A DNA stretch of 62,640 bases, the filler included, from Rhabdomonas costata (taxonomy: Eukaryota), in NCBI GenBank assembly GCA_019059605.1. It is 45 parts of 45 records of this genome, joined end to end, with 100 filler letters (N's around TTAATTAATTAA, not from the genome) between each part and the next. Parts side by side here need not be neighbours in the genome. Positions count along the whole stretch, not along the records: positions 48,804 to 50,097 come from JAHMHO010020353.1; 44 more parts are not named here. One strand, given 5' to 3'. The stretch's first letter is position 1, and every line of letters begins with the position of its first letter. A program made the position numbers and the translations under genes. The notes beneath the pieces are model-generated. The model was not told the DNA's origin and ran no database searches. It saw only the letters and a program-made list of their open reading frames with translations. Positions 8,369-52,093 of the stretch are shown one piece after another.

Positions 8369-9663
8369 GTTTTTTTGTGGTACTTCAGAGATGCTGTTAC
8401 TTCTGATGACGCTACTATTGTGCACACGTTCTCAGCGGTCGTAAAACGATCAGGTGGACACACAGGACAATTCTGCAAGATGTAATGACGTGTTCATTTG
8501 TGTTTATTCCCGTTCCATTCCAATTTTGTTTTGTCAAATTCCAGACGTTATCAACAGAAAATATTGACCAAATGTGTATCAATTCTGCGCACAGTATGTC
8601 ATGTACACTGTCACAAATTGTCACAGTGCAAAGTTCTTACATGCAATTAAAGTCAACTTGTTTCTTTGCGTCAACGTTTTTCCACATTTGGTAACTTTCA
8701 ACTTTATTTTACTTTGGACAAAACTGCACAGAGTACTGCTAATTGTGTAAATATTCTCGACAAAAATGTACGCAAAGTCCCTGATGAAACGATTTGTGTT
8801 CCATGCCGTACGCCATATCAGCATCTTAAGTGTCAAGAGCCTCAATTGTTGAGAGTGTACTAGGAAATGACACCATCAATACGCACTCAGTTCCACTAAG
8901 AGGATTTCGGTAACATAAGCTGCACATACCTTTACACATGTGATTTTTCTCCTCTCATTTTTAACTGACCCTGAAAACAACTTGCAACTGATGTCTGTGA
9001 TTCAAAGTCAAATTATCATTTGAATCATTTGAAAGCTGGTTTTTCCACTACTGCAGGTATTACCGCAATTGCTGCACCTTTTTGTATGATGAGCCATATC
9101 GAAAGTAAGATTCAAGTAATAGTAGTACGATCTTTTGTCAATAAAATCATTCAGAAGTACCACAATGTACGTGTTTGCAAAATAATTTGTTATTATCCAC
9201 AGTTGAATCATTGTAGACATGAGCATAGTGTACTATGTGGACACAATGTGTGAGTATTCTACCAGCACTATAGATTCTAAGATGTTGACAGCGTTTACTG
9301 CAATCTTCAGGAACGTTCCAATCATACGAAATTATCAGTTGATGAGGTGCTAATCAATAGATCAATAGATCAATTTAAACTATTCCATAAGAATGACCGT
9401 GCTGTGAAAGCTGGAAAGCTGTGTCAAGCTCCATTGTTTTTAATATTATAAGCTCTCTGTAATGGAAGAAGTGTGCCATTTTGTATTCCGTCAGTCTATC
9501 TTTCAGTATTCAAGATTTTTGTGTGATATGCGTGTTTATATTGTAGTACTCAACGGCATTCGGTGTCATGATATCAACGTAGACCAGCTGTTCTTTGTTC
9601 CACTATCCTCTTCCACTGCCAGTTAATTGTACCAATGGTACCTGGAACTGTAAAAAACAAACA
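8369..9663 (-). mobile_element. AT-rich decayed sequence, possibly the N-terminal part of a Helitron RepHel
   Basis: Composition matches the two better-supported Helitron contigs; only faint motif remnants (IFSVDNV resembling QYxVDxY, CRIVL resembling GxRIILP). Confidence 0.25.
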
Positions 9664-11158: not shown

Positions 11159-12453
11159 GGGTTGTGTTAATTTTCACATGGAATTTATTGCGTATAAATT
11201 CACGTCCAATTGTTTTGTGACAACACTCCCTTGATAAATGATAAAGACAATAACATCTATCAAACGTACAATTTTATGAGTTTATGCCAGATGCCTTCAT
11301 GTCTGTTTCCAATTGTAGCGATAGTAATATCGTGCTGGCAGTGGTGCTATTGGAATGTATGAAACAACACAGTGACAGACTGCAATGTAGATATTAGTGC
11401 ATGCATATTTTAGCAGTCTTTGCAATTTAATGGACATCGGTAATACCACAGCACATCAGTACAGAGTGCGAAAGTGAGGCGTGCATACTACTATAGCTCT
11501 CAATGCTGCAAGTTTTGAAATCTCTCCATTTTACATTTTTAACGCGTTTGGTATATTGTTGTGTAGTTTACTGTTTATTGCTGGATTAGTGTATTATGAA
11601 CTACGTGTTTCATATCTTTATATAGCGCTACATTTTCTCTGGGAAATTTGGTAATAGTGGAAATGATTCAGTGTCATTGGCTAGTTTATGGCGTCCAACG
11701 TGGCTGTGGTATGTTAATGTGTGCATTGTGAAGTGTCTAAACCACAAAAAATCAATCAAAATATTCAATGAATGGAAGTAAACAGAAAACTGAATGTCTA
11801 ATAAACTAACAAATGAGAATATAGTGGCGCAAGTAAACATTCAGTTTAGTTCCTGAGCAAGAGATGTGTTTTTGCGCGTTAAAAGTTAACAAATTATACG
11901 CACCTTATAATCATCATGTTTGGCATGCATTTTGTTATATGTTATTAGTGAATACGTTTTGCAGATATATTATTATCAGAAACAATCTGAATTCTTTTTG
12001 CACGTTAATATTACCGGTAATCATTTGATACATCTAATACGACACTTATCGTGTTTTCAAATGTCATCTCTTACCACTTAAGTAATCCATATTTCTGAAA
12101 AGGTGCATCCGTACATACGGAGTGTTGTACATCACAATAAAATGCAGTACAGTTAGATTTTGCTATACACGTGTCAATATGTTACAATACAACTATGCAG
12201 TAGTGCTTGCGTTGCGTTTTTAGATTCAATTATTTCTTAGAGTGGTGGCTACTATAGAGTTTCCACTCAAACGCGCGCAATCAAAAACAAGAGAGCTAAA
12301 TTGGACATCAGTCACAAGAAACCTGGATATAACAAAAGCAGCAAAGTGTGTCATGAACACCTGGTTTATGTCTCCTTTACACACACAAGAGCTGCACAAA
12401 ATAGTGTCACCACTTTGATGCACGTATCGTATCCTGCTCACACCCCCCACACC
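11159..12453 (+). mobile_element. Decayed Pif1-type helicase (Helitron RepHel helicase domain), pseudogenised
   Basis: Ordered remnants: RAGSGA (11331-11348, Walker A-like), GNTTAH (11439-11456, like GGxTAHS), FSGK followed by VIV (about 11635-11660, like FGGKxVVxGGD), SIKIFNEWK then MR (to about 11818, like SxKxSxLW...NMR); many stops and frameshifts. Confidence 0.5.
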
Positions 12454-19526: not shown

Positions 19527-20824
19527 TTTTTTTCTAAGAGTAGCATATACGTTGCACTGAGTAACAATACGTTTATTGATGATAATTTTAATTCGCTTGC
19601 TGATAATTAAAACACAGTTACCGCAGTTTTGGAATGTGTTTCGAACACTCCTTCCGTATTACTTGATGAAACATTTGCTCCATCCAGAACAGTGATATAT
19701 TATCAATATTGCGAAATTAAAGTGTGATGACAAAGTGTCACAAACTCTGTAGACTTCCACAAAGAGACGCACAGATGTTGTGGCTTCACTTTTGGAAGCT
19801 TAAATCCATAGTATTTGTGCGGTAATTTGCTAATATTCCAATAAGAATTGAAACATCAAGCTCCGAGCGGTAAACGTGGAGCACAAAAAAGAGCTTTATA
19901 CGCGCGCAAAGTTTTACAATAAACATGCGCACGTTAAAGAAGTCATTCCAGTGTGCAAATGACGCACGGTGATAAACGTCCGATACGGCGAGCGAATTTT
20001 CAAACTTTCCAAGATAAACAGCAGCACTCTACTTCAGTGTGGTAACAAGTGCACTTCTCCTGTCACTAGAAAGAGCAACTAGCACAAAGCTTGTTTTACA
20101 CCTGTCAAATGTATACTATGTGGTCATCAAGGGTCTTGGTGTAGACAAAAATGTAATAGATTCAGTATTCATCTAAATTCAACATGTTCTGAAAATAAAT
20201 TTCAAGGTCTTCTAAATTGTAGCTACGGATACAAAATAAACAGGTAGGCACAAGTAACGTAATTGTACGTAACTCTGTACCCTCCACGTGGTCCGTGTGC
20301 ACAAGACTTTCGTAAAATAACGAGATCAAGACAAGATTGGAAAATAAACCACCATGTTAATCAAGCATATTTTCAATGAATGGTATGGTGACTTGTCATC
20401 AAATGTCCAATTTGTTATAGTCCTTCAATTCGCCAAAATGCACAGCTTCTTTCTTGGGTCTTGGTTACAAACAATATACATGATCAATACAAAGATGTGA
20501 CCTAGATTTTGTACTGGCGGTACAGAAATTTCTTTATCCTTCGCTGCATTTTTTCATCCTTTGATTGATCCAATACACGTTCGGCACTGTGACGCAAATA
20601 TTCTATGTATAATCAATTATGTGTCATTGTTTTAGTAATTTTCTCAATTCTGGCTGTCAATTCTCCTAAAAATATCCTTGAACTCGTTAATGAGCTTTAG
20701 TTATTCATGATAAACTGTAGTTTACTGCCACGGTGGCGACACATTGCTGAATACGTTTTGAGAATATTTTGGACATTTGGCTTGTTTGTATTCTGTAACA
20801 GAGTTTTCTATGATCAAACCAACA
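19527..20824 (-). mobile_element. Decayed Helitron Rep domain, pseudogenised
   Basis: Ordered remnants on the minus strand: CAHGPRG (about 20281-20303, like MIHGPCG), FIVKLCARIKLFFVLHVYR (about 19866-19925, like INVExCxSIKxxKYLxKYVYK), YITVLDGANVS (like IxxYLDGRYVS); AT-rich with many stops. Confidence 0.45.
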
Positions 20825-30057: not shown

Positions 30058-30682
30058 GCAAGTCTTTTTTCTTTGTATTTCTTTCGGGCACATGCACATA
30101 CACACACCAGCTGATGGAACACTGCAGGCACTGCAGGTACGCCCACTAATATGTATTCCATTTTCATCGGATGGGGATAGATGGGTGGTGCTGAAAACGT
30201 GTTATGGAGACGTGACGAGCAGCCATCATCTGCCTTTCCGCTTTTGGCTGTCGTTCTTTCTTCTTTCATCCCTCTCTTTCCAACATTTATCCTAATTCAA
30301 AACAGCACGCAGATCAGCGCAGTTGGTGGGATAATTTTGTGCGTCGTTTTGAACCTTGAAAAGAGTGCAGCGCTTTCCGACCCAATGCGGCGTTTAGCAT
30401 GCAAGTATTGTGTGTGAATGGGCCAGTCGCTCAGCGGGCGTGCGCGCAGCGCTCTCACAAATACGCCCCTCCCCCACCCCACAAGGGCAGTATTAAGCAC
30501 CGTATCGAAAGGGTAAGGATAAGACGAGTACTTAAAGTAGTTAGCGTCGGCCAAGGGAATCGCACCTCTTACCCACCCACNNNNNNNNNNNNNNNNNNNN
30601 NNNNNNNNNNNNNNNNNNNNNNNNTTAATTAATTAANNNNNNNNNNNNNNNNNNNNNNNNNNNNNNNNNNNNNNNNNNNNGG

Positions 30683-31972
30683 GTTGTTGTTCCTGAATGG
30701 GAGGATGTCCTTTTGCAAAAGCTGGGTAACAGTTGCGGATTTTCTGGTTTGATCGATCTTGGGTTTACCAGAGTTGCTACCACGCAAAGCCTTACTCTTG
30801 AGGTATTCTTTGCTCCGGAATGTGTTCCTACGAATGGTGCTGCCTCGACGTGTCTCGGAAGTCCAAAGGCGTCTTTCAGAAGCACCGCTTCCATATCGGC
30901 GAGCAGCAGCGTCATTACTCAGGGACCTTCGCCACGAATGCCGGATGTGTACACGCGTCTGTCCAATTGCCGCATAGAAGTTGATATTCGTGGGGACTCA
31001 TGTCGGCACCTTCAGAAGCTGTTGCAGCATTATTCTTCCCACTCCGCAGCAGTTTTGCAGTTGGCGGTGCGGGAAGCATTTGACCCATCTGTGGAGGCTG
31101 TGTTAAAGGATCAAAAGATGCAGAAAATAAAGGAGTTGATTGACCAAGCCCTTCATATGCCCTTAGCCCAATCCACGAGTCTGGTGTCACCCAACCTACA
31201 GCCAACTGGTGATCCTTCCGAAGCTCACGAGGCCGGTTTTGACGTGGTTACCTTTTCTGAGGACCTTCCACGATCCCCCGGAAGGTGCTCCAGTGTCTTC
31301 GTTGGGGACTGTGCGGAGGACCTTTCCCCTGTGATTTTGGATGATTACATCAGTCTCACTTCCACTTCCGGTGATCTGCGGGGTCGAGGAGAATCCTTGC
31401 TTGAAGAGTCCACAGTTCTTCGATCATCGTCTCCCTCAGATCCCGAATGCATAGCGGTCTCATGGCAACCTGAGAGCGATGGAAGATCTGCTGCAGCCTC
31501 CTATTTTCCTGAGCGCGGGGAACTCACCACAGACTACATTGACCTTGGCGGTGCCGCAAGGTCAGGCCAGCCAGCGAGAGGGAAAAAGTTTTCATCACCG
31601 CCCATGCCTTTCTCAAGCTTCAGAGTATCTGACGCTCCAAAGGCTATATTGCATCAGACAAAGATCAACTTTGAGATGTTTGAAAACTTTTTTACTGCCT
31701 TCGACTCTCGAGACGACACCTCTGAGCTTCTGTTGTACACTGACATGTCTCTTCCTCACATAGTTGTTGATGTCTCTCTAGATTCCGTTAGTGTGCGACT
31801 TCATGGTGGAAAAGACTTCTCTGAAGCCATTAGTAATCAGCAGCCACCGTGTCCACAACAGATACCCTCCCCATTTTTATTGGACCGCCTCCAGTCGTTT
31901 GGACCTTCTGCTGAATCAGGGATTGACCAAGACCAAGACCAACACCAAGACCAAGACTCCAGACCTGACCAA
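30683..31972 (+). CDS. ATG2: Autophagy lipid-transfer protein ATG2-like, one long internal exon filling the contig
   Basis: 430 uninterrupted codons; GLIDLG, IEVDIRGDSCRHLQKLLQHY (like TCxDSCxxLxxLxQY) and VSVRLHGGKDF (like WHLYGGKDF) occur in ATG2 order; DQ repeat near the end. Confidence 0.55.
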
Positions 31973-32074
31973 AANNNNNNNNNNNNNNNNNNNNNNNNNN
32001 NNNNNNNNNNNNNNNNNNTTAATTAATTAANNNNNNNNNNNNNNNNNNNNNNNNNNNNNNNNNNNNNNNNNNNN

Positions 32075-33069
32075 AAGGGCACGGAGATTCTGGAGGTTCC
32101 TCCTGGGCAGAACCTGGAGGACACTGTGCTGCAGATCCACGCGTTGAACCCAGAGCAGCGGCCGTTTTACGTGGTGGACCTTGCGGTGTGCAGTTGCCCC
32201 GGCACCGCCATGTGCTGATGTGTGGCACCAGCGCATCTGTTAGCTCATTCGAAAATTGTGTTTGTGTGTGTGGCGCACGAAGACGGGCGAAAGAGCCGAA
32301 GAGTAATCTTTCCCTTTCTTTCCCTTGAAGAGACTGGATCGTGGGGGGGGGGGATTTAGCTGCTTAGCTGCGTTTGTTTTGCAACCCTCAAGCCTTCCAT
32401 TGGGGAGGATCGTTTGGATTAAAAGCCTATGTGGTGGGGTTGGGTACCGAAATCAGCAACCCGTCAGCTTTACTTCAAGGGTTTTGTGATCAGTTTGCGA
32501 GGTCCTTTTAGCCTCTTGCCTGAATTGTGTTGTCTTTCTCTTACTTCCCACATCGCTTCACAACGCAGGACCGCCTGACTTTATTCTTTGACTTAGGGAC
32601 ACTTGTGTCTGTTTGTTCGTGTTTGTGTCTGTTTGTGCGATGTAAAGACAGAAAAGAAACACACACACACACACACACACTCTCTCGTGAAGGAGGACTT
32701 TGACTTTGACTTTCGATGTATGCTGTCGAAATCTCGGGGCGTCCTGTTGCACTTTTTCGTCCTATTCTGCCTCCACGTTCGGGTTTTTTCTAAAGTTGCT
32801 CTCGTTGAGTTGCACCATCATAACCCGACTTGCACCACCGAACCAGTGCATCTCTGTTCTTCTCCTTGAACGTCGGCGGCTCCTGTGGCGACGGTTTCCA
32901 CAGGTTCCCGTTCGGATGTATGAGACGTGGTGCCGGCTTCTGCCCCGGGTCAAGCCCCACTACGCCGTGAAGTGCAATCCAGACAAGGGCATCGTCGCAG
33001 CTCTCGCGGCGTGCGGGTGCTGCTTCGACTGCGCCTCGCCATTTGAGTTCGAGCGCGTTCTTGGCGTTG
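32075..33069 (+). CDS. ODC: Ornithine decarboxylase, partial; exons 32075-32185 and 32904-33069
   Basis: PFYVVDLA|VPVRMYETWCRLLPRVKPHYAVKCNPD...GCCFDCAS carries the PLP-lysine motif YAVKCN and FDCAS; phase-0 GT-AG intron. Confidence 0.92.
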
Positions 33070-33476
33070 GTCCGTTTCCACCCCTTTCTGTGATAGCTCA
33101 CTCTCTCCAGCTCTCTCACATCTCTTATATAACCCGCGTCCATCATCCCCTCACCCCGCACCCCGCACATCCAGAATCCCGACCCATCCTCCGATTTCAG
33201 ACGCGAAGCATCCAAACGAAAAGTCGACCTCCCACACTTGCAAAGAACCTCACGGAGAGGGTCCAAGGCAGGTAGAGGCGGTGCCTTGCTGGTGATGACC
33301 CAACCACTCCACCAAAGTCGAAACGCAAGCAGGCACTAAAAAGCAATTCACAGAGAGCTGTTACTCGCTNNNNNNNNNNNNNNNNNNNNNNNNNNNNNNN
33401 NNNNNNNNNNNNNTTAATTAATTAANNNNNNNNNNNNNNNNNNNNNNNNNNNNNNNNNNNNNNNNNNNNGTTTTGG

Positions 33477-47181: not shown

Positions 47182-49698
47182 GTATGCAAGGGAATGATTT
47201 TTTCATCTGCAACACCATGCCCTGGATAGCGTACTTTGCTTTATTAAAAAACGCATGTTCTTCTATTCCCTGCATTTTACTCTCTTTTTTTTCTCTTCAA
47301 AATGGCACACNNNNNNNNNNNNNNNNNNNNNNNNNNNNNNNNNNNNNNNNNNNNTTAATTAATTAANNNNNNNNNNNNNNNNNNNNNNNNNNNNNNNNNN
47401 NNNNNNNNNNGTGTGGTTGTGGTGTAGGCATTCTTATATACAGAGGTAGAGTGAAGGTGGGTGCATCGGTTACCATCAAACCACGGTACCACCGAAAAAA
47501 GAAGTTTAAAAAGCACTGAAAGGTTGGATGGAATAGTGGGGTTTTGGGCTAGCCACTCCCCCTAGCGTGCCCGGCAACCTGGGACAAGAGTAGAGCAAAG
47601 ATATCGTCCGACTGTGGCGGCCAGAACAGCGCCGTGGCGGCTTCGATGGGGCCTCCTCGGAAGCGGATTTGGTGGCACACCACCTTCACCAGTACATGCA
47701 GCCGCGCGTTCCACTGCCCTGAGCCAGCAATGGTGAAGGGGCGTGGTGTTCTCATTCTCTGACCTCAACGCCGTCCCCCCCCCCACAGGGAAGTGAGTGT
47801 CGCAGCGTTTGCAGCACTGACGAAACAGCAGCTGCTCAATAGATGCTCAGTTTGCTCTCAGAGAAGTGTAACAGAGAAGCAGCAAAACTCCTCCTATGGC
47901 TGGGGACAGGCCATGTCATGCAAACTATGCAGGTGGGAGTGGAATGGTATCAAATTCTATTCCTCCCTGTCTCAATCGGCTGACCTTAGCTAGGGGGTCG
48001 TCGAAGGACAATCGCCAACCGTCCTCATATGCCCACATAATAAGCCACATAAAGGGTGTCATACGGTCCATTCTGCTAAAGCAGTTGAATGGAGAAGCCA
48101 AGGCGAAAGCAAGGAAGGCAAGCGGACACCGGGTATTTCGAGGTGGGAGTTGTCACCAGTTGGAGAGAGCCGCTCCAAGCCTGAGAGAGAGAAGCCGGAC
48201 GAGCAAAACGAAAAAGAAAACTCTCGAACTGCACAATGGGTGCGCACATCCAGATCATACAAATGCGGGAGAACAAATTCCAACACACCCGCCTGCTCGA
48301 AATCAAGGGCCAACGTAATGTAGGATATAGGCAAACAACCCAGCAACATGAGTATTGCACTGCGCATGGTACGACAACCAAGAACCCCACAACAACAGAC
48401 ACACATTCAAGCCAAAAAGGATTACACCTCCGGTCGGCAGGTCACTGGGTTTTAGCATGGGAAGCATGGGCTACTTAGCAGAGAAGTGCGGATCTCGCGA
48501 CGCAGTCCAAGGGTAACCCCCTCCCCCCCTATCCCCTACCACACAAGGCAAGGCGTCTGCCAGCCTCACCACAACCCTTCGCCAATGCACCGTTGGGTTT
48601 CACCCATCACTTCACCCCTTTCCAGACGTATATGAGCACACCCTGAAGTGCGCGTGTTTGTTAGAAGGGGCGAAGCCAAAGCACACCACAGGCACCACCC
48701 CACNNNNNNNNNNNNNNNNNNNNNNNNNNNNNNNNNNNNNNNNNNNNTTAATTAATTAANNNNNNNNNNNNNNNNNNNNNNNNNNNNNNNNNNNNNNNNN
48801 NNNGTTGTTGTTGGCGAGCCCAATCGGGTAATCTCCAATTGAAAAACGGGCAAGAGGTTGTGCAACGCACCGGGCTGTGCGCTTTCTCTAAAGGAAGGCT
48901 GTGTCGTTGTCAATTGCGCGGGAAACGGGACATGATAACGAAGGCTTGTTTGCCAGCGACATAGGACGTTTTGAAATTATCCGCGGTCTGGCTCGGATAG
49001 ATGGGACCTCCGCACCCAACCGTTTTTTAAAAGGACGCGACCGCAAAAATTAAGCGTGGAACGCTCAGTTTTTTGGTGTCCGTCCGCTAAAAGCCCACGT
49101 TCTCAACAGTCTGGGCGTGGGGGGAAACGGCCCAAAAGGCTTCAAAGATAAGGGACGAAGGAGGTCAGATAAAGAATGTTCATATGTTCATGCAGGCTTG
49201 GGGGGTCGCGCCGTTTTGTCACAGATTCTGTCTGAGGCCAGCATGCAAGGACCGGTAGGCTCACAGGATGCGGTGAACAGAAGAAGCCACAACACACATG
49301 ACAACGACAGTCCAGACCTTTGGTGCCGGTAATGGGTGGAACGGGCAACAATGAACAACCTCATCCCTTGAAACGCCGTTCAAATCCCACCGCGCCGCAC
49401 TTAAAGACGCAAAGGAAAGCTAAACATCAGAGCGTGGTGAGAATAGAGAAAAAACAAAGCGGCGCTTCGTGGCCACTTACTTTGCCACCGAGAGGGACAG
49501 GAGAAGGAGAAGCCAGCACGATAGATGCACAAAGCACAAAGAAAGTGAATGGGTAAAGGATGGATGGGGAAGGACGAGCGACACTGGAGGTCTACAAAAA
49601 GAGCAGTGGACGCAAAAGGCCACAAAAAAGCACAAAATAGAAAAACACTTCCAACCCCAAACGGTTTCTCATCGATCTGCACGTCGGAAGCGTACATT

Positions 49699-50095
49699 GC
49701 CCACACCTAACCCCACGATAACCATATGATGAGCCCATACGCAGAAGCCGACAACCCCGATAGCAGACATACAGTACACCATACCCTCACGTCCAAACAC
49801 ATCGCGCAAAGAACCCGACACCAAACCAAAGATGGGTAAGATAACGGTCCACACTTCAGGATGCCCAAAGAACCAAAAGAGATGCTGCTACAAAACTGGA
49901 TCACCACCAAGCATACCGTCCTACACACACGCCCCCTAGTTCCTATCAACAAGTACACCCGTAATCGCAACACCCAGCACCGGAAGAGAACCCACCAAAA
50001 GAAACGCAGTGACCATAAGGGACCAAACCTACACAGGAATGCTACTCAACCCACGATGACACCCACACCGAACCCAGCTAGTTGATGACACCCAA
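49699..50095 (-). pseudogene. cox1: Cytochrome c oxidase subunit 1 fragment (NUMT or mitochondrial gene fragment) with in-frame TAG codons
   Basis: LGVIN*LGSVWVSSW(frameshift)[113 protein letters not shown]; the motifs [18 protein letters not shown] and VWAHHM identify cox1. Confidence 0.93.
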
Positions 50096-52093
50096 CCNNN
50101 NNNNNNNNNNNNNNNNNNNNNNNNNNNNNNNNNNNNNNNNNTTAATTAATTAANNNNNNNNNNNNNNNNNNNNNNNNNNNNNNNNNNNNNNNNNNNNGGT
50201 TTGTTGGTCAGCTGCACCCCAGTTCCCAAATAATTGTGTTGGTCAGGAGTTTGATTCGCGCATCTTGTTCACATCCACGAGAAACTGTGCACGGTGGTCT
50301 GAAAGTTGGACTATGTGGGTGAAGGTTTCGGAGCAGTGATTCACTTCCGGAGGCTGCTTAGGGCTGACTTACTTTCTCTTTGATTTGCTTTTGTTGTTGT
50401 TCTTTGTTTGACTCAGTCAAAAGCATGCGAAAACCCGATTTCTGTGCTTCAATCAGGTGGTTGCTTTCCTTTCTTCCGCTGCCTGCGCTCGGCTGGTACT
50501 CAGTGAACCACGCTTCAACGGCGCAATTCTGGCGTGACTCTAAACGAGCGAGATATTCAACGGCAAGAAGCTGGGCGGAGCGAGTGTAGGGGTGTTTGTT
50601 TGTTGTAAGTGACATGCCTGCTGTTCGCCCCGGTGTTTCGTGTGTACCGCCGCTTTTTCTTTGCCACGTTGTGGCTTTCTGGCCCGTTGTACGATGTGGC
50701 CTTGTGTACAGGAGTTGGGCAGGCTCTTTTCAGTAGGCCAGCGTGCATTCTAGCAGTGACTTTTGTCTCAGCTGAAATATTGCTGCCCGCTTGCCTTATG
50801 CTTGGGTTGTGTTCCGTCAAAGGATGTCCCGGGTGTTTATGGATTCTCCATCGACTGAAGTTTTGCTTTGCCCGTTGGATCGCAATGAGGTAACCCAACC
50901 TCATGCCCCCGTCCCGTTCTGTATGGTATTGCTACTTGCGCTCTTATGGACACTTCCGCATTGCACAATCTGCATCTCTGTTCGTTTGCGTTCTTGTCCT
51001 GAAGAGAACTCAGAATTGGGTGGAAGATCGAGCCTTGTGAGTAACTGACGCTGAATTTGATTTAGCAGTTGATTTTATTGGGAACCGAAAATCGTGTCAA
51101 TGAGTGGTTTTGAGGCGTTTCGGGGCACGCTTGGCCCCACTTTCTCCACTCCAATTCTTTAGTAGTCATCGCAATCACTGCCACGCCTTACACTAAATCT
51201 TATGGGGTGAGACCGACGGATAATGGGTGTGGATGTGGGTGGGGAGGTGTTCCTGTTGGGTCAATGTCCCTTTCTGCCGTCATCCCGTGATAGTTACTTA
51301 CAACAAGACCCTCCGCTACAGGGGCAAGAAGAGGTGCTGTATGCACAACAGACCTCCCCACTTCAGGCCTGCGTCGGCTTAGCCCTCTCCATTTCAGGAT
51401 AATTCGTTGAAAGAAGGTGCATGACCTCAGCTCTTTCAACATCCATTGTTCGAGACAAACACCCCCATTGTTTTTACTGCTCCCCACCACANNNNNNNNN
51501 NNNNNNNNNNNNNNNNNNNNNNNNNNNNNNNNNNNTTAATTAATTAANNNNNNNNNNNNNNNNNNNNNNNNNNNNNNNNNNNNNNNNNNNNGCTTTTTTT
51601 CATCATTGCAGAGGTCCAAGACATCCTAAATTGTCAGAGGTCCAAGACATAATAAATTGTCAACATGAGTAACAAAATATAAGGGAAGGAAAAAAAGGGT
51701 CACTGCGAAAGGAGTGCCGAACAATCATCCAGGGGGGCACTGGCAAAGCTTACCTAACCCCCTTATACAAAATAAAGTCATTTCTGGCCTGTTTTACTTG
51801 ACTGTTAGAAAAAAGAGCGCGAATTGTTTGAACAGGTTGTAATACCTGGTTTACCTATATTACAGGGTTGGCCAATCTTTTTTAACGTTCTGACTTTGAA
51901 GATTTTACGATTTTCAAATGTTTGTTTCAAGTTTATTTTACGTTTTCTTTTGATTTTTTAAAAAAGTGGCCAACACTGTACACCACCATGCGGCCCAGTC
52001 CGTGATACCCCTGCGAAGCCCGATCCAACATCGATACGCGCACCCCCCGCATGTCGCACACGCAGACGTGGACACAGAAAAAGCCATAGGTAA

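Follow-up and report, generated by a model that had tools for sequence, protein, structure and literature searches.

Reassignment of a stop codon to sense is rare, and every independent instance helps to test how a genetic code changes, by tRNA capture or by release-factor loss. In the alternative flatworm mitochondrial code (NCBI table 14), TAA is read as Tyr. The described system closest to the present locus is the mitochondrion of Rhabdomonas costata itself. In the parts of Soukal et al. (2021, Sci Rep; PMC8219788) that deal with the mitochondrial code, the cox1, cox2, cob and nad4 genes of R. costata, translated in code 4, carry many UAG codons at positions occupied by Tyr in other euglenozoans, and the code is given as one in which UAG is Tyr and UGA is Trp, with no indication of RNA editing in those parts. 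The same parts report a complete, rebuilt cox1 as well as unusual tyrosyl-tRNA synthetases. The reading of UAG as Tyr in this lineage is thus already known (Soukal et al. 2021, PMC8219788), and the remark of an earlier first-pass annotation of this DNA, which knew of no such case in a euglenid-like organism, is overtaken by those passages. In a literature search, PMC8219788 was the sole match joining Rhabdomonas, tyrosine, UAG and mitochondrial; a study of euglenozoan single-cell mitogenomes (PMC8130358) mentions only TGA as Trp.

Elsewhere, the same assignment is cited in the comparative portion of PMC8219788 for Clathrina clathrus (Lavrov 2013) and for some labyrinthulids (Zihala 2020), which are unrelated lineages. 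The mitochondria of Clathrina, a calcareous sponge, also combine UAG as Tyr with UGA as Trp according to that portion; Clathrina is further described as reading CGN as Gly; the fragment analysed here contains CGN codons and encodes the conserved Arg of its DRN motif by AGG. In TAA-as-Tyr codes, of which Radopholus similis (PMC2761399) is a reported case, a stop codon one base away from UAY has likewise been captured by Tyr, but the codon is UAA and the hosts are animals. The mtDNA of Euglena gracilis is described, in sections of Dobakova 2015 (PMC4700960) and in Spencer and Gray 2011 as cited there, as being full of pseudogenes and short gene fragments generated by recombination. These fragments resemble the present contig in that short and likely non-functional gene pieces are joined to unrelated sequence. 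They differ from it in that E. gracilis has no UAG sense codons, in that its Cox1 is 59% identical to our fragment, and in that its fragments are mitochondrial, while the contig may lie in either the organelle or the nucleus.

The present locus shares with R. costata, as portrayed in the same parts of PMC8219788, a cox1 with many UAG codons at Tyr positions, and the published draft resembles the contigs analysed here in its heavy fragmentation and its GC content of about 51%. In contrast to the complete gene reported there, the contig holds a truncated, frame-broken piece of cox1 that contains no TGA, so that the UGA-as-Trp half of the published code is not visible in it. The window, by which we mean the whole stretch of DNA analysed (62,640 nt, positions 1–62640), consists of 45 unrelated contigs of 1291–1298 bp each, separated by 44 linkers of 100 nt with the composition N44-TTAATTAATTAA-N44; GC ranges from 0.36 to 0.58 over the 45 contigs. 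Because the contigs are unrelated, readings that span a linker are meaningless, findings elsewhere in the window are judged contig by contig, and the context of the cox1 piece is limited to 48804–50097. No second match to this contig occurs elsewhere in the window, where the cox1 piece is single, and no tRNA genes were found across the whole window. The features of the contig are as follows.

48804–50097, no strand assigned: contig with the cox1 piece, 1294 bp, both neighbours unrelated and behind linkers
48804–49695, no strand assigned: flank without recognisable gene, RNA family or repeat in Rfam, tRNA, repeat, Pfam and PDB searches
49696–49705, minus strand: end of Cox1 likeness and junction with unrelated sequence; HSPs end at 49678–49702, with a flip in skew
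49705–50073, minus strand: cox1 main frame, VRCGCH...HHMVIVGLG, about residues 170–298 of a 495-aa Cox1
49726–49731, minus strand: CAT CAT, both His of WAHHM, kept (translation and alignment)
49774–49776, minus strand: TAC, sole standard Tyr codon of the fragment, in MVYC (codon reading)
49849–49851, minus strand: TGG, coding for Trp, where HPEVY has its His-crosslinked Tyr; Tyr in 120 of 120 homologues
49888–49890, minus strand: TAG 5, column PVL[Y]QH; Y 116, F 4 in 120 homologues
49921–49923, minus strand: TAG 4, column CV[Y]DG; Y 62, F 56, H 1, L 1 in 120 homologues
49936–49938, minus strand: TAG 3, column DRN[Y]GA; F 83, I 18, V 9, L 6, Y 2, M 1 in 120 homologues
50029–50031, minus strand: TAG 2, column PV[Y]VW; F 79, Y 37, L 3, I 1 in 120 homologues
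50074, minus strand: frame break, one base (g) where relatives have the codons for A-T, a net loss of 5 nt
50075–50095, minus strand: cox1 upstream frame, LGVIN-TAG-L, ended by the contig edge and aligning with LGAINYL of P0003
50078–50080, minus strand: TAG 1, column IN[Y/F]L; Y 6, F 4 among the 10 full-length relatives that cover the column

The minus strand of 49705–50095 encodes about 130 codons of cox1. Pfam PF00115 (COX1) recognises residues 16–130 of the fragment with an E-value of 6.4e-27 (94.9 bits; cut-off 34.8), and 41 Cox1-type chains of solved structure match it, the best being 8iuf_C1 (E 6e-44), whose aligned residues are identical to those of P0034, the UniRef entry for Euglena gracilis Cox1. 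In a tblastn comparison, residues 158–304 of P0003, the nearest relative, correspond to window positions 50097–49678. The motifs GHPEV and WAHHM are both present in the fragment and invariant in the alignment; the His of HPEV and the two His of WAHHM are CuB ligands of Cox1.

Read from 50094, the minus-strand frame spans 135 codons and contains four stops, all of them TAG, with no TAA and no TGA, while the frame read from 50095 gives LGVIN, one TAG and L. Among codons 1–130 of the main frame are one TAC, no TAT, five TTT, two TTC, six TGG and no TGA. Third positions of the cox1 coding strand are strongly G+T-rich (A 7%, C 15%, G 36%, T 42%), and Tyr codon use nevertheless amounts to four TAG (five with the upstream frame), one TAC and no TAT, despite T occupying 42% of third positions. 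The first-pass annotation had recorded the same coordinates and codon content, namely five TAG, no TAA or TGA, TAC in MVYC, use of TTT and TTC, and TGG as the only Trp codon, and these proved exact on rechecking.

The residues opposite each main-frame TAG were tallied in 120 homologues, with the 11 closest sequences as a close set. Within the close set, Tyr occupies the columns of TAG 2, 3, 4 and 5 in 7, 1, 9 and 11 of the 11 sequences, respectively, and P0003 has Tyr at three of the four main-frame columns, DRN[Y] included. The in-frame TAG codons are therefore concentrated on conserved Tyr columns, the pattern that marks a variant code with UAG as Tyr. The earlier claim that every TAG falls on a conserved or usually aromatic column is upheld by both the 120-homologue tally and the 11-relative tally.

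The contig probably holds a broken piece, some 140 codons out of about 495, of a euglenid-type cox1 from a mitochondrion in which UAG is an ordinary Tyr codon, with the five TAG inherited and the copy itself most likely non-working. Where UAG is an ordinary Tyr codon in the source, the five TAG are inherited sense codons rather than products of decay. The central proposal of the first-pass annotation, that UAG is a sense codon and most likely Tyr, draws support from the column statistics, from a chance calculation given below and from the ends of relatives' open reading frames, and the reading of UAG as Tyr in the source mitochondrion is accordingly well supported at the level of sequence comparison.

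The source of the fragment was placed with a quick maximum-likelihood tree of 52 of 121 proteins, built on the fragment's columns only and with SH-aLRT support only. The fragment is sister to P0003 (SH-aLRT 95), and the pair lies within a 35-row clade (SH-aLRT 99, stem 0.84) that includes the E. gracilis Cox1 and leaves the bacterial sequences outside. Additionally, the motifs FG[RK][ES]GM and LPxLGVAITG are common to 32 and 29 other proteins of the 121, respectively, E. gracilis included. The tree and the shared motifs, together with an identity of only 59% to E. gracilis Cox1, indicate a source in a euglenid-type mitochondrion other than that of E. gracilis.

The relatives are partial ORFs from metagenomes and run assemblies, retrieved by protein searches at similar and shorter lengths and by two cluster look-ups; across three length classes, the protein searches returned no match above 93% identity to the fragment. 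Several of these ORFs end at Tyr columns. Specifically, P0263 (92% identical to the fragment) ends in GHPEV, with the cross-linked Tyr as the next column; P0264, at 93% identity, breaks off in GREGMV, before the Tyr of MVYC; P0279 ends in LLLDRN, at the column of TAG 3; P0143 ends in DLDSRA, before the Tyr of RAYF; and P0303 and P0305 end at PVL, at the column of TAG 5. Relatives' ORFs also end at the Tyr of WTLYPP. Measured against the full-length P0125, 14 of 16 cox1-type partial ORFs have a Tyr column as the position directly after their last residue (once each at 126, 213, 242, 257, 320 and 392, twice at 229, and three times each at 272 and 301), and the other two end one residue before column 257; the ends are known from proteins alone, so that the terminating codon could be TAA and some of the ORFs may simply stop where their contigs do, and two cytochrome b-like cluster members were left out of the count of 16. 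Columns 272 and 320 are confounded, since other lineages have TGA (Trp) there. On unconfounded Tyr columns, ORF ends number 5 of 14 at an identity of at least 75%, compared with 1 of 85 below 65%.

The positions of these stops differ from one relative to the next. Partial cox1 ORFs that are 77–98% identical to the fragment or to P0125 stop at differing Tyr columns (126, 213, 229, 242, 257, 301 and 392), and the stop-bearing Tyr columns vary even among relatives 92–93% identical to the fragment. For example, P0263 reads Tyr at DRNY, VYDG and VLYQH yet stops after HPEV, whereas sequences of the P0264/P0279 type stop after DRN and read HPEVY. Such variation among relatives is what is expected of synonymous codons, and comparison among them shows TAG at Tyr columns behaving, so far as protein sequences can tell, as a synonym of TAY. 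The nearest full-length sequences, P0003 and P0125 (495 aa), contain no in-frame stops, which means that the reassignment of UAG is not established clade-wide.

A metagenome scan with the fragment was evaluated for the best 80 of 590 confirmed loci, all of them at most 62% identical and none of them among the close relatives. When P0003 was aligned to these 80 loci by tblastn, in-frame stops appeared in eight: 32 TGA in six loci at Trp-type columns, a single TAG in L031 opposite residue 483, and a single TAA in L027 opposite residue 479. The last two look like true gene ends, and no TAG at a Tyr column was found in these best 80 of the 590 loci at up to 62% identity. A scan of a genome collection with P0125 returned 80 loci, all bacterial and at most 45% identical.

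It is conceivable, and we put it forward tentatively, that UAG as Tyr marks a whole clade of uncultured euglenids present in many metagenomes, with the fragment in a sublineage that shares a 5-residue deletion (P0264, P0308, P0309), with UAG and UAY swapping freely, and with the stop-free P0003 and P0125 dating or bounding the change.

Some further features were noted among the sequences collected in these searches. One 90%-identity cluster mixes the stop-free P0003 and P0125 with members that are cut short at Tyr columns (column 126 in P0126 and 257 in P0127). The relatives also include a 1127-aa member (P0130) and an 819-aa sequence resembling a Cox1–Cox2 fusion (P0009, with PF00115 and PF00116). 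Five of the metagenome loci (L007, L055, L057, L070 and L076) are short cox1 contigs with 4–8 in-frame TGA at Trp-type columns, from ordinary code-4 mitochondria; these loci have TGA at P0003 positions 77 and 320, where the euglenid-type sequences have Tyr.

The copy in the contig is most likely not the working gene. Truncation, disruption of the frame and loss of an essential residue are all found in it: coverage extends only over residues ~158–304 of ~495 rather than over a full-length uninterrupted frame, the frame is broken near the upstream end, and the catalytic cross-linked Tyr of HPEVY is replaced by Trp. At the frame break, relatives read L-A-T-V-R where the fragment reads L-(g)-V-R. 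The first-pass annotation had described a 1-nt frameshift below the first TAG; the change of frame is confirmed at 50074, but it is not a plain 1-nt slip, since the net loss is 5 nt. At HPEVY, TGG lies one transition from TAG and a close relative stops at that very site, so that a change from TAG to TGG in an unconstrained copy is the simplest account; the derivation of this TGG from TAG, as originally proposed, is backed by the ORF of P0263.

At the downstream end, the fragment runs into a tail, GLGVGNVR, where relatives have GLDLDSRAYF, and plus-strand GC skew at the junction shifts from about −0.3 to between +0.1 and +0.3. Close to the junction, both Asp of GLD.D are replaced by Gly in the fragment, each by A>G, in columns that are more variable across homologues. 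With TGA as Trp and TAG as Tyr, the cox1 frame stays open for about 75 more codons, to a TAA at 49477–49479, with no Cox1 likeness past about 49705 and no resemblance to other proteins in Pfam and PDB searches. All three replacements, Tyr to Trp (TAG to TGG) and Asp to Gly twice, come from A>G changes. If this strand is under a specific A>G pressure, that could also account for the predominance of TAG over TAT among its Tyr codons.

The alternative that survives best holds that the contig is a working cox1 whose frame break, TGG codon and junction are artefacts of assembly, amplification or chimera formation. It has in its favour the high conservation of the fragment, with 51 alignment columns invariant over the fragment and 11 relatives, and the fact that its indels are common to relatives; moreover, two observations speak against decay of the copy, namely that a 5-aa deletion is common to P0264, P0308 and P0309 and a 2-aa deletion to P0279, all of which keep HPEVY, and that just 24 nt separate the frame break from the end of the contig, the zone in which assemblies are least reliable, in an assembly that is very fragmented. 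We nevertheless regard a working gene as improbable, since three independent defects would be required within 400 nt, a base-call error exactly at the catalytic Tyr is unlikely, and the switch in composition at the junction fits a real or chimeric join. A non-working copy could be an mtDNA gene fragment of the euglenid kind, a nuclear transfer or part of a chimeric contig. In-frame deletions of 2 aa and 5 aa were also considered as signs of decay and were dropped as such, because they occur in relatives with an intact HPEVY and are therefore lineage features.

On the preferred reading of UAG as Tyr, a Tyr-charged tRNA able to read UAG would be imported into the mitochondrion or formed within it, and the mitochondrial release factor would no longer stop at UAG; UAG and UAY, being synonymous, could then replace one another at Tyr columns over time. 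Euglenozoan mitochondrial tRNAs are all thought to be imported. Under this constraint, the tRNA-Tyr that reads UAG must be kept from cytosolic translation or made inside the organelle, which makes the lineage a good one for studying the mechanism of reassignment. To the published account the contig adds an extra, degenerate copy of cox1, a suggestion that Tyr is encoded preferentially by TAG (four or five TAG against one TAC and no TAT), and leads to environmental relatives with the same signature.

Two further explanations are both very unlikely. The first proposes that UAG is not decoded at all and that RNA editing, known from other euglenozoan mitochondria, corrects these codons in the mRNA. 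Conversion of UAG to UAY would need a G-to-U or G-to-C change, and we know of no euglenozoan case of such editing. Editing is heavy in the mitochondria of kinetoplastids and diplonemids, as the pertinent sections of PMC4700960 relate, but the same sections report that none was found in E. gracilis, and the sections of PMC8219788 on the code give no indication of it across the R. costata mitochondrial genes.

The second of the two takes UAG as a sense codon for Phe, or for any aromatic residue, in place of Tyr. The fragment and the broad homologue set, taken by themselves, are compatible with Phe, which outnumbers Tyr in two main-frame columns out of four (79 against 37 at the PVYVW column and 83 against 2 at the DRNYGA column); at DRN in particular, Tyr is found in only 2 of 120 homologues and 1 of the 11 closest. 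The remaining evidence points to Tyr. The VLYQH column is Tyr in 116 of 120 homologues, Tyr leads at three of the four main-frame columns in the close set (7, 9 and 11 of 11) and Phe at none, and the fragment already contains seven TTY codons against only one TAY. In addition, relatives have ORFs that terminate at the invariant Tyr in each of HPEVY, WTLYPP and RAYF, and Tyr is the assignment given in the code sections of PMC8219788.

For the chance calculation, each TAG was reset to TAY and all single-base changes that create a stop were counted. TAY-to-TAG changes at the five sites make up 5 of 38 stop-creating changes at a kappa of 1 and 5 of 65 at a kappa of 4, and the probability that all five stops arose by TAY-to-TAG decay is 4e-5 (kappa 1) to 3e-6 (kappa 4), in agreement with the earlier argument that random decay should not yield only TAG and only at Tyr/Phe columns. 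Decay that struck five of seven Tyr codons would also not have left 51 invariant columns or a protein 83% identical to P0125. An ordinary decaying pseudogene, that is, a nuclear mtDNA copy with the usual Tyr codons in which TAG arose by mutation of TAY, would suit a truncated and frame-broken copy that lacks the catalytic Tyr and in which TAY is a single step from TAG, but against these probabilities, this degree of conservation and the stops at Tyr columns in relatives too, it is scarcely credible.

The flank at 48804–49695 gave no Rfam match at E≤1. Its six ORFs, translated in code 4 with TAG as Tyr, gave Pfam matches below threshold only, to the N-terminus of NADH dehydrogenase chain 4 (E 0.039; 14.5 bits, with 22.7 required) and to a zinc finger (E 0.012). 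The hint of nad4 was taken as chance, given its sub-threshold score and a PDB search that returned no related match.

Outside this contig, three contigs of the window (8369–9663, 11159–12453 and 19527–20824) stand apart by a GC content of 0.36–0.37, compared with 0.43–0.58 in the other 42; none of the three has an ORF longer than 94 aa, and 19527–20824 has none of 90 aa or more. On the plus strand of 30681–31974, a frame is open over the entire 1294-bp contig, giving 430 codons that run into both linkers; it has no Pfam match at E≤0.001 and may represent either a long exon or a frame made up of low-complexity or repeat sequence. Pfam matches among the 10 longest ORFs of the window comprise an Orn/Arg decarboxylase domain and a weak hit to DnaJ, and these ORFs yielded no further mitochondrial gene. 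The decarboxylase domain lies in an ORF on the plus strand at 32691–33272, in which residues 75–138 match a piece of the PLP-binding domain of Orn/Arg/DAP decarboxylases (PF02784, E 4.6e-14), and this ORF is probably an exon of a nuclear gene.
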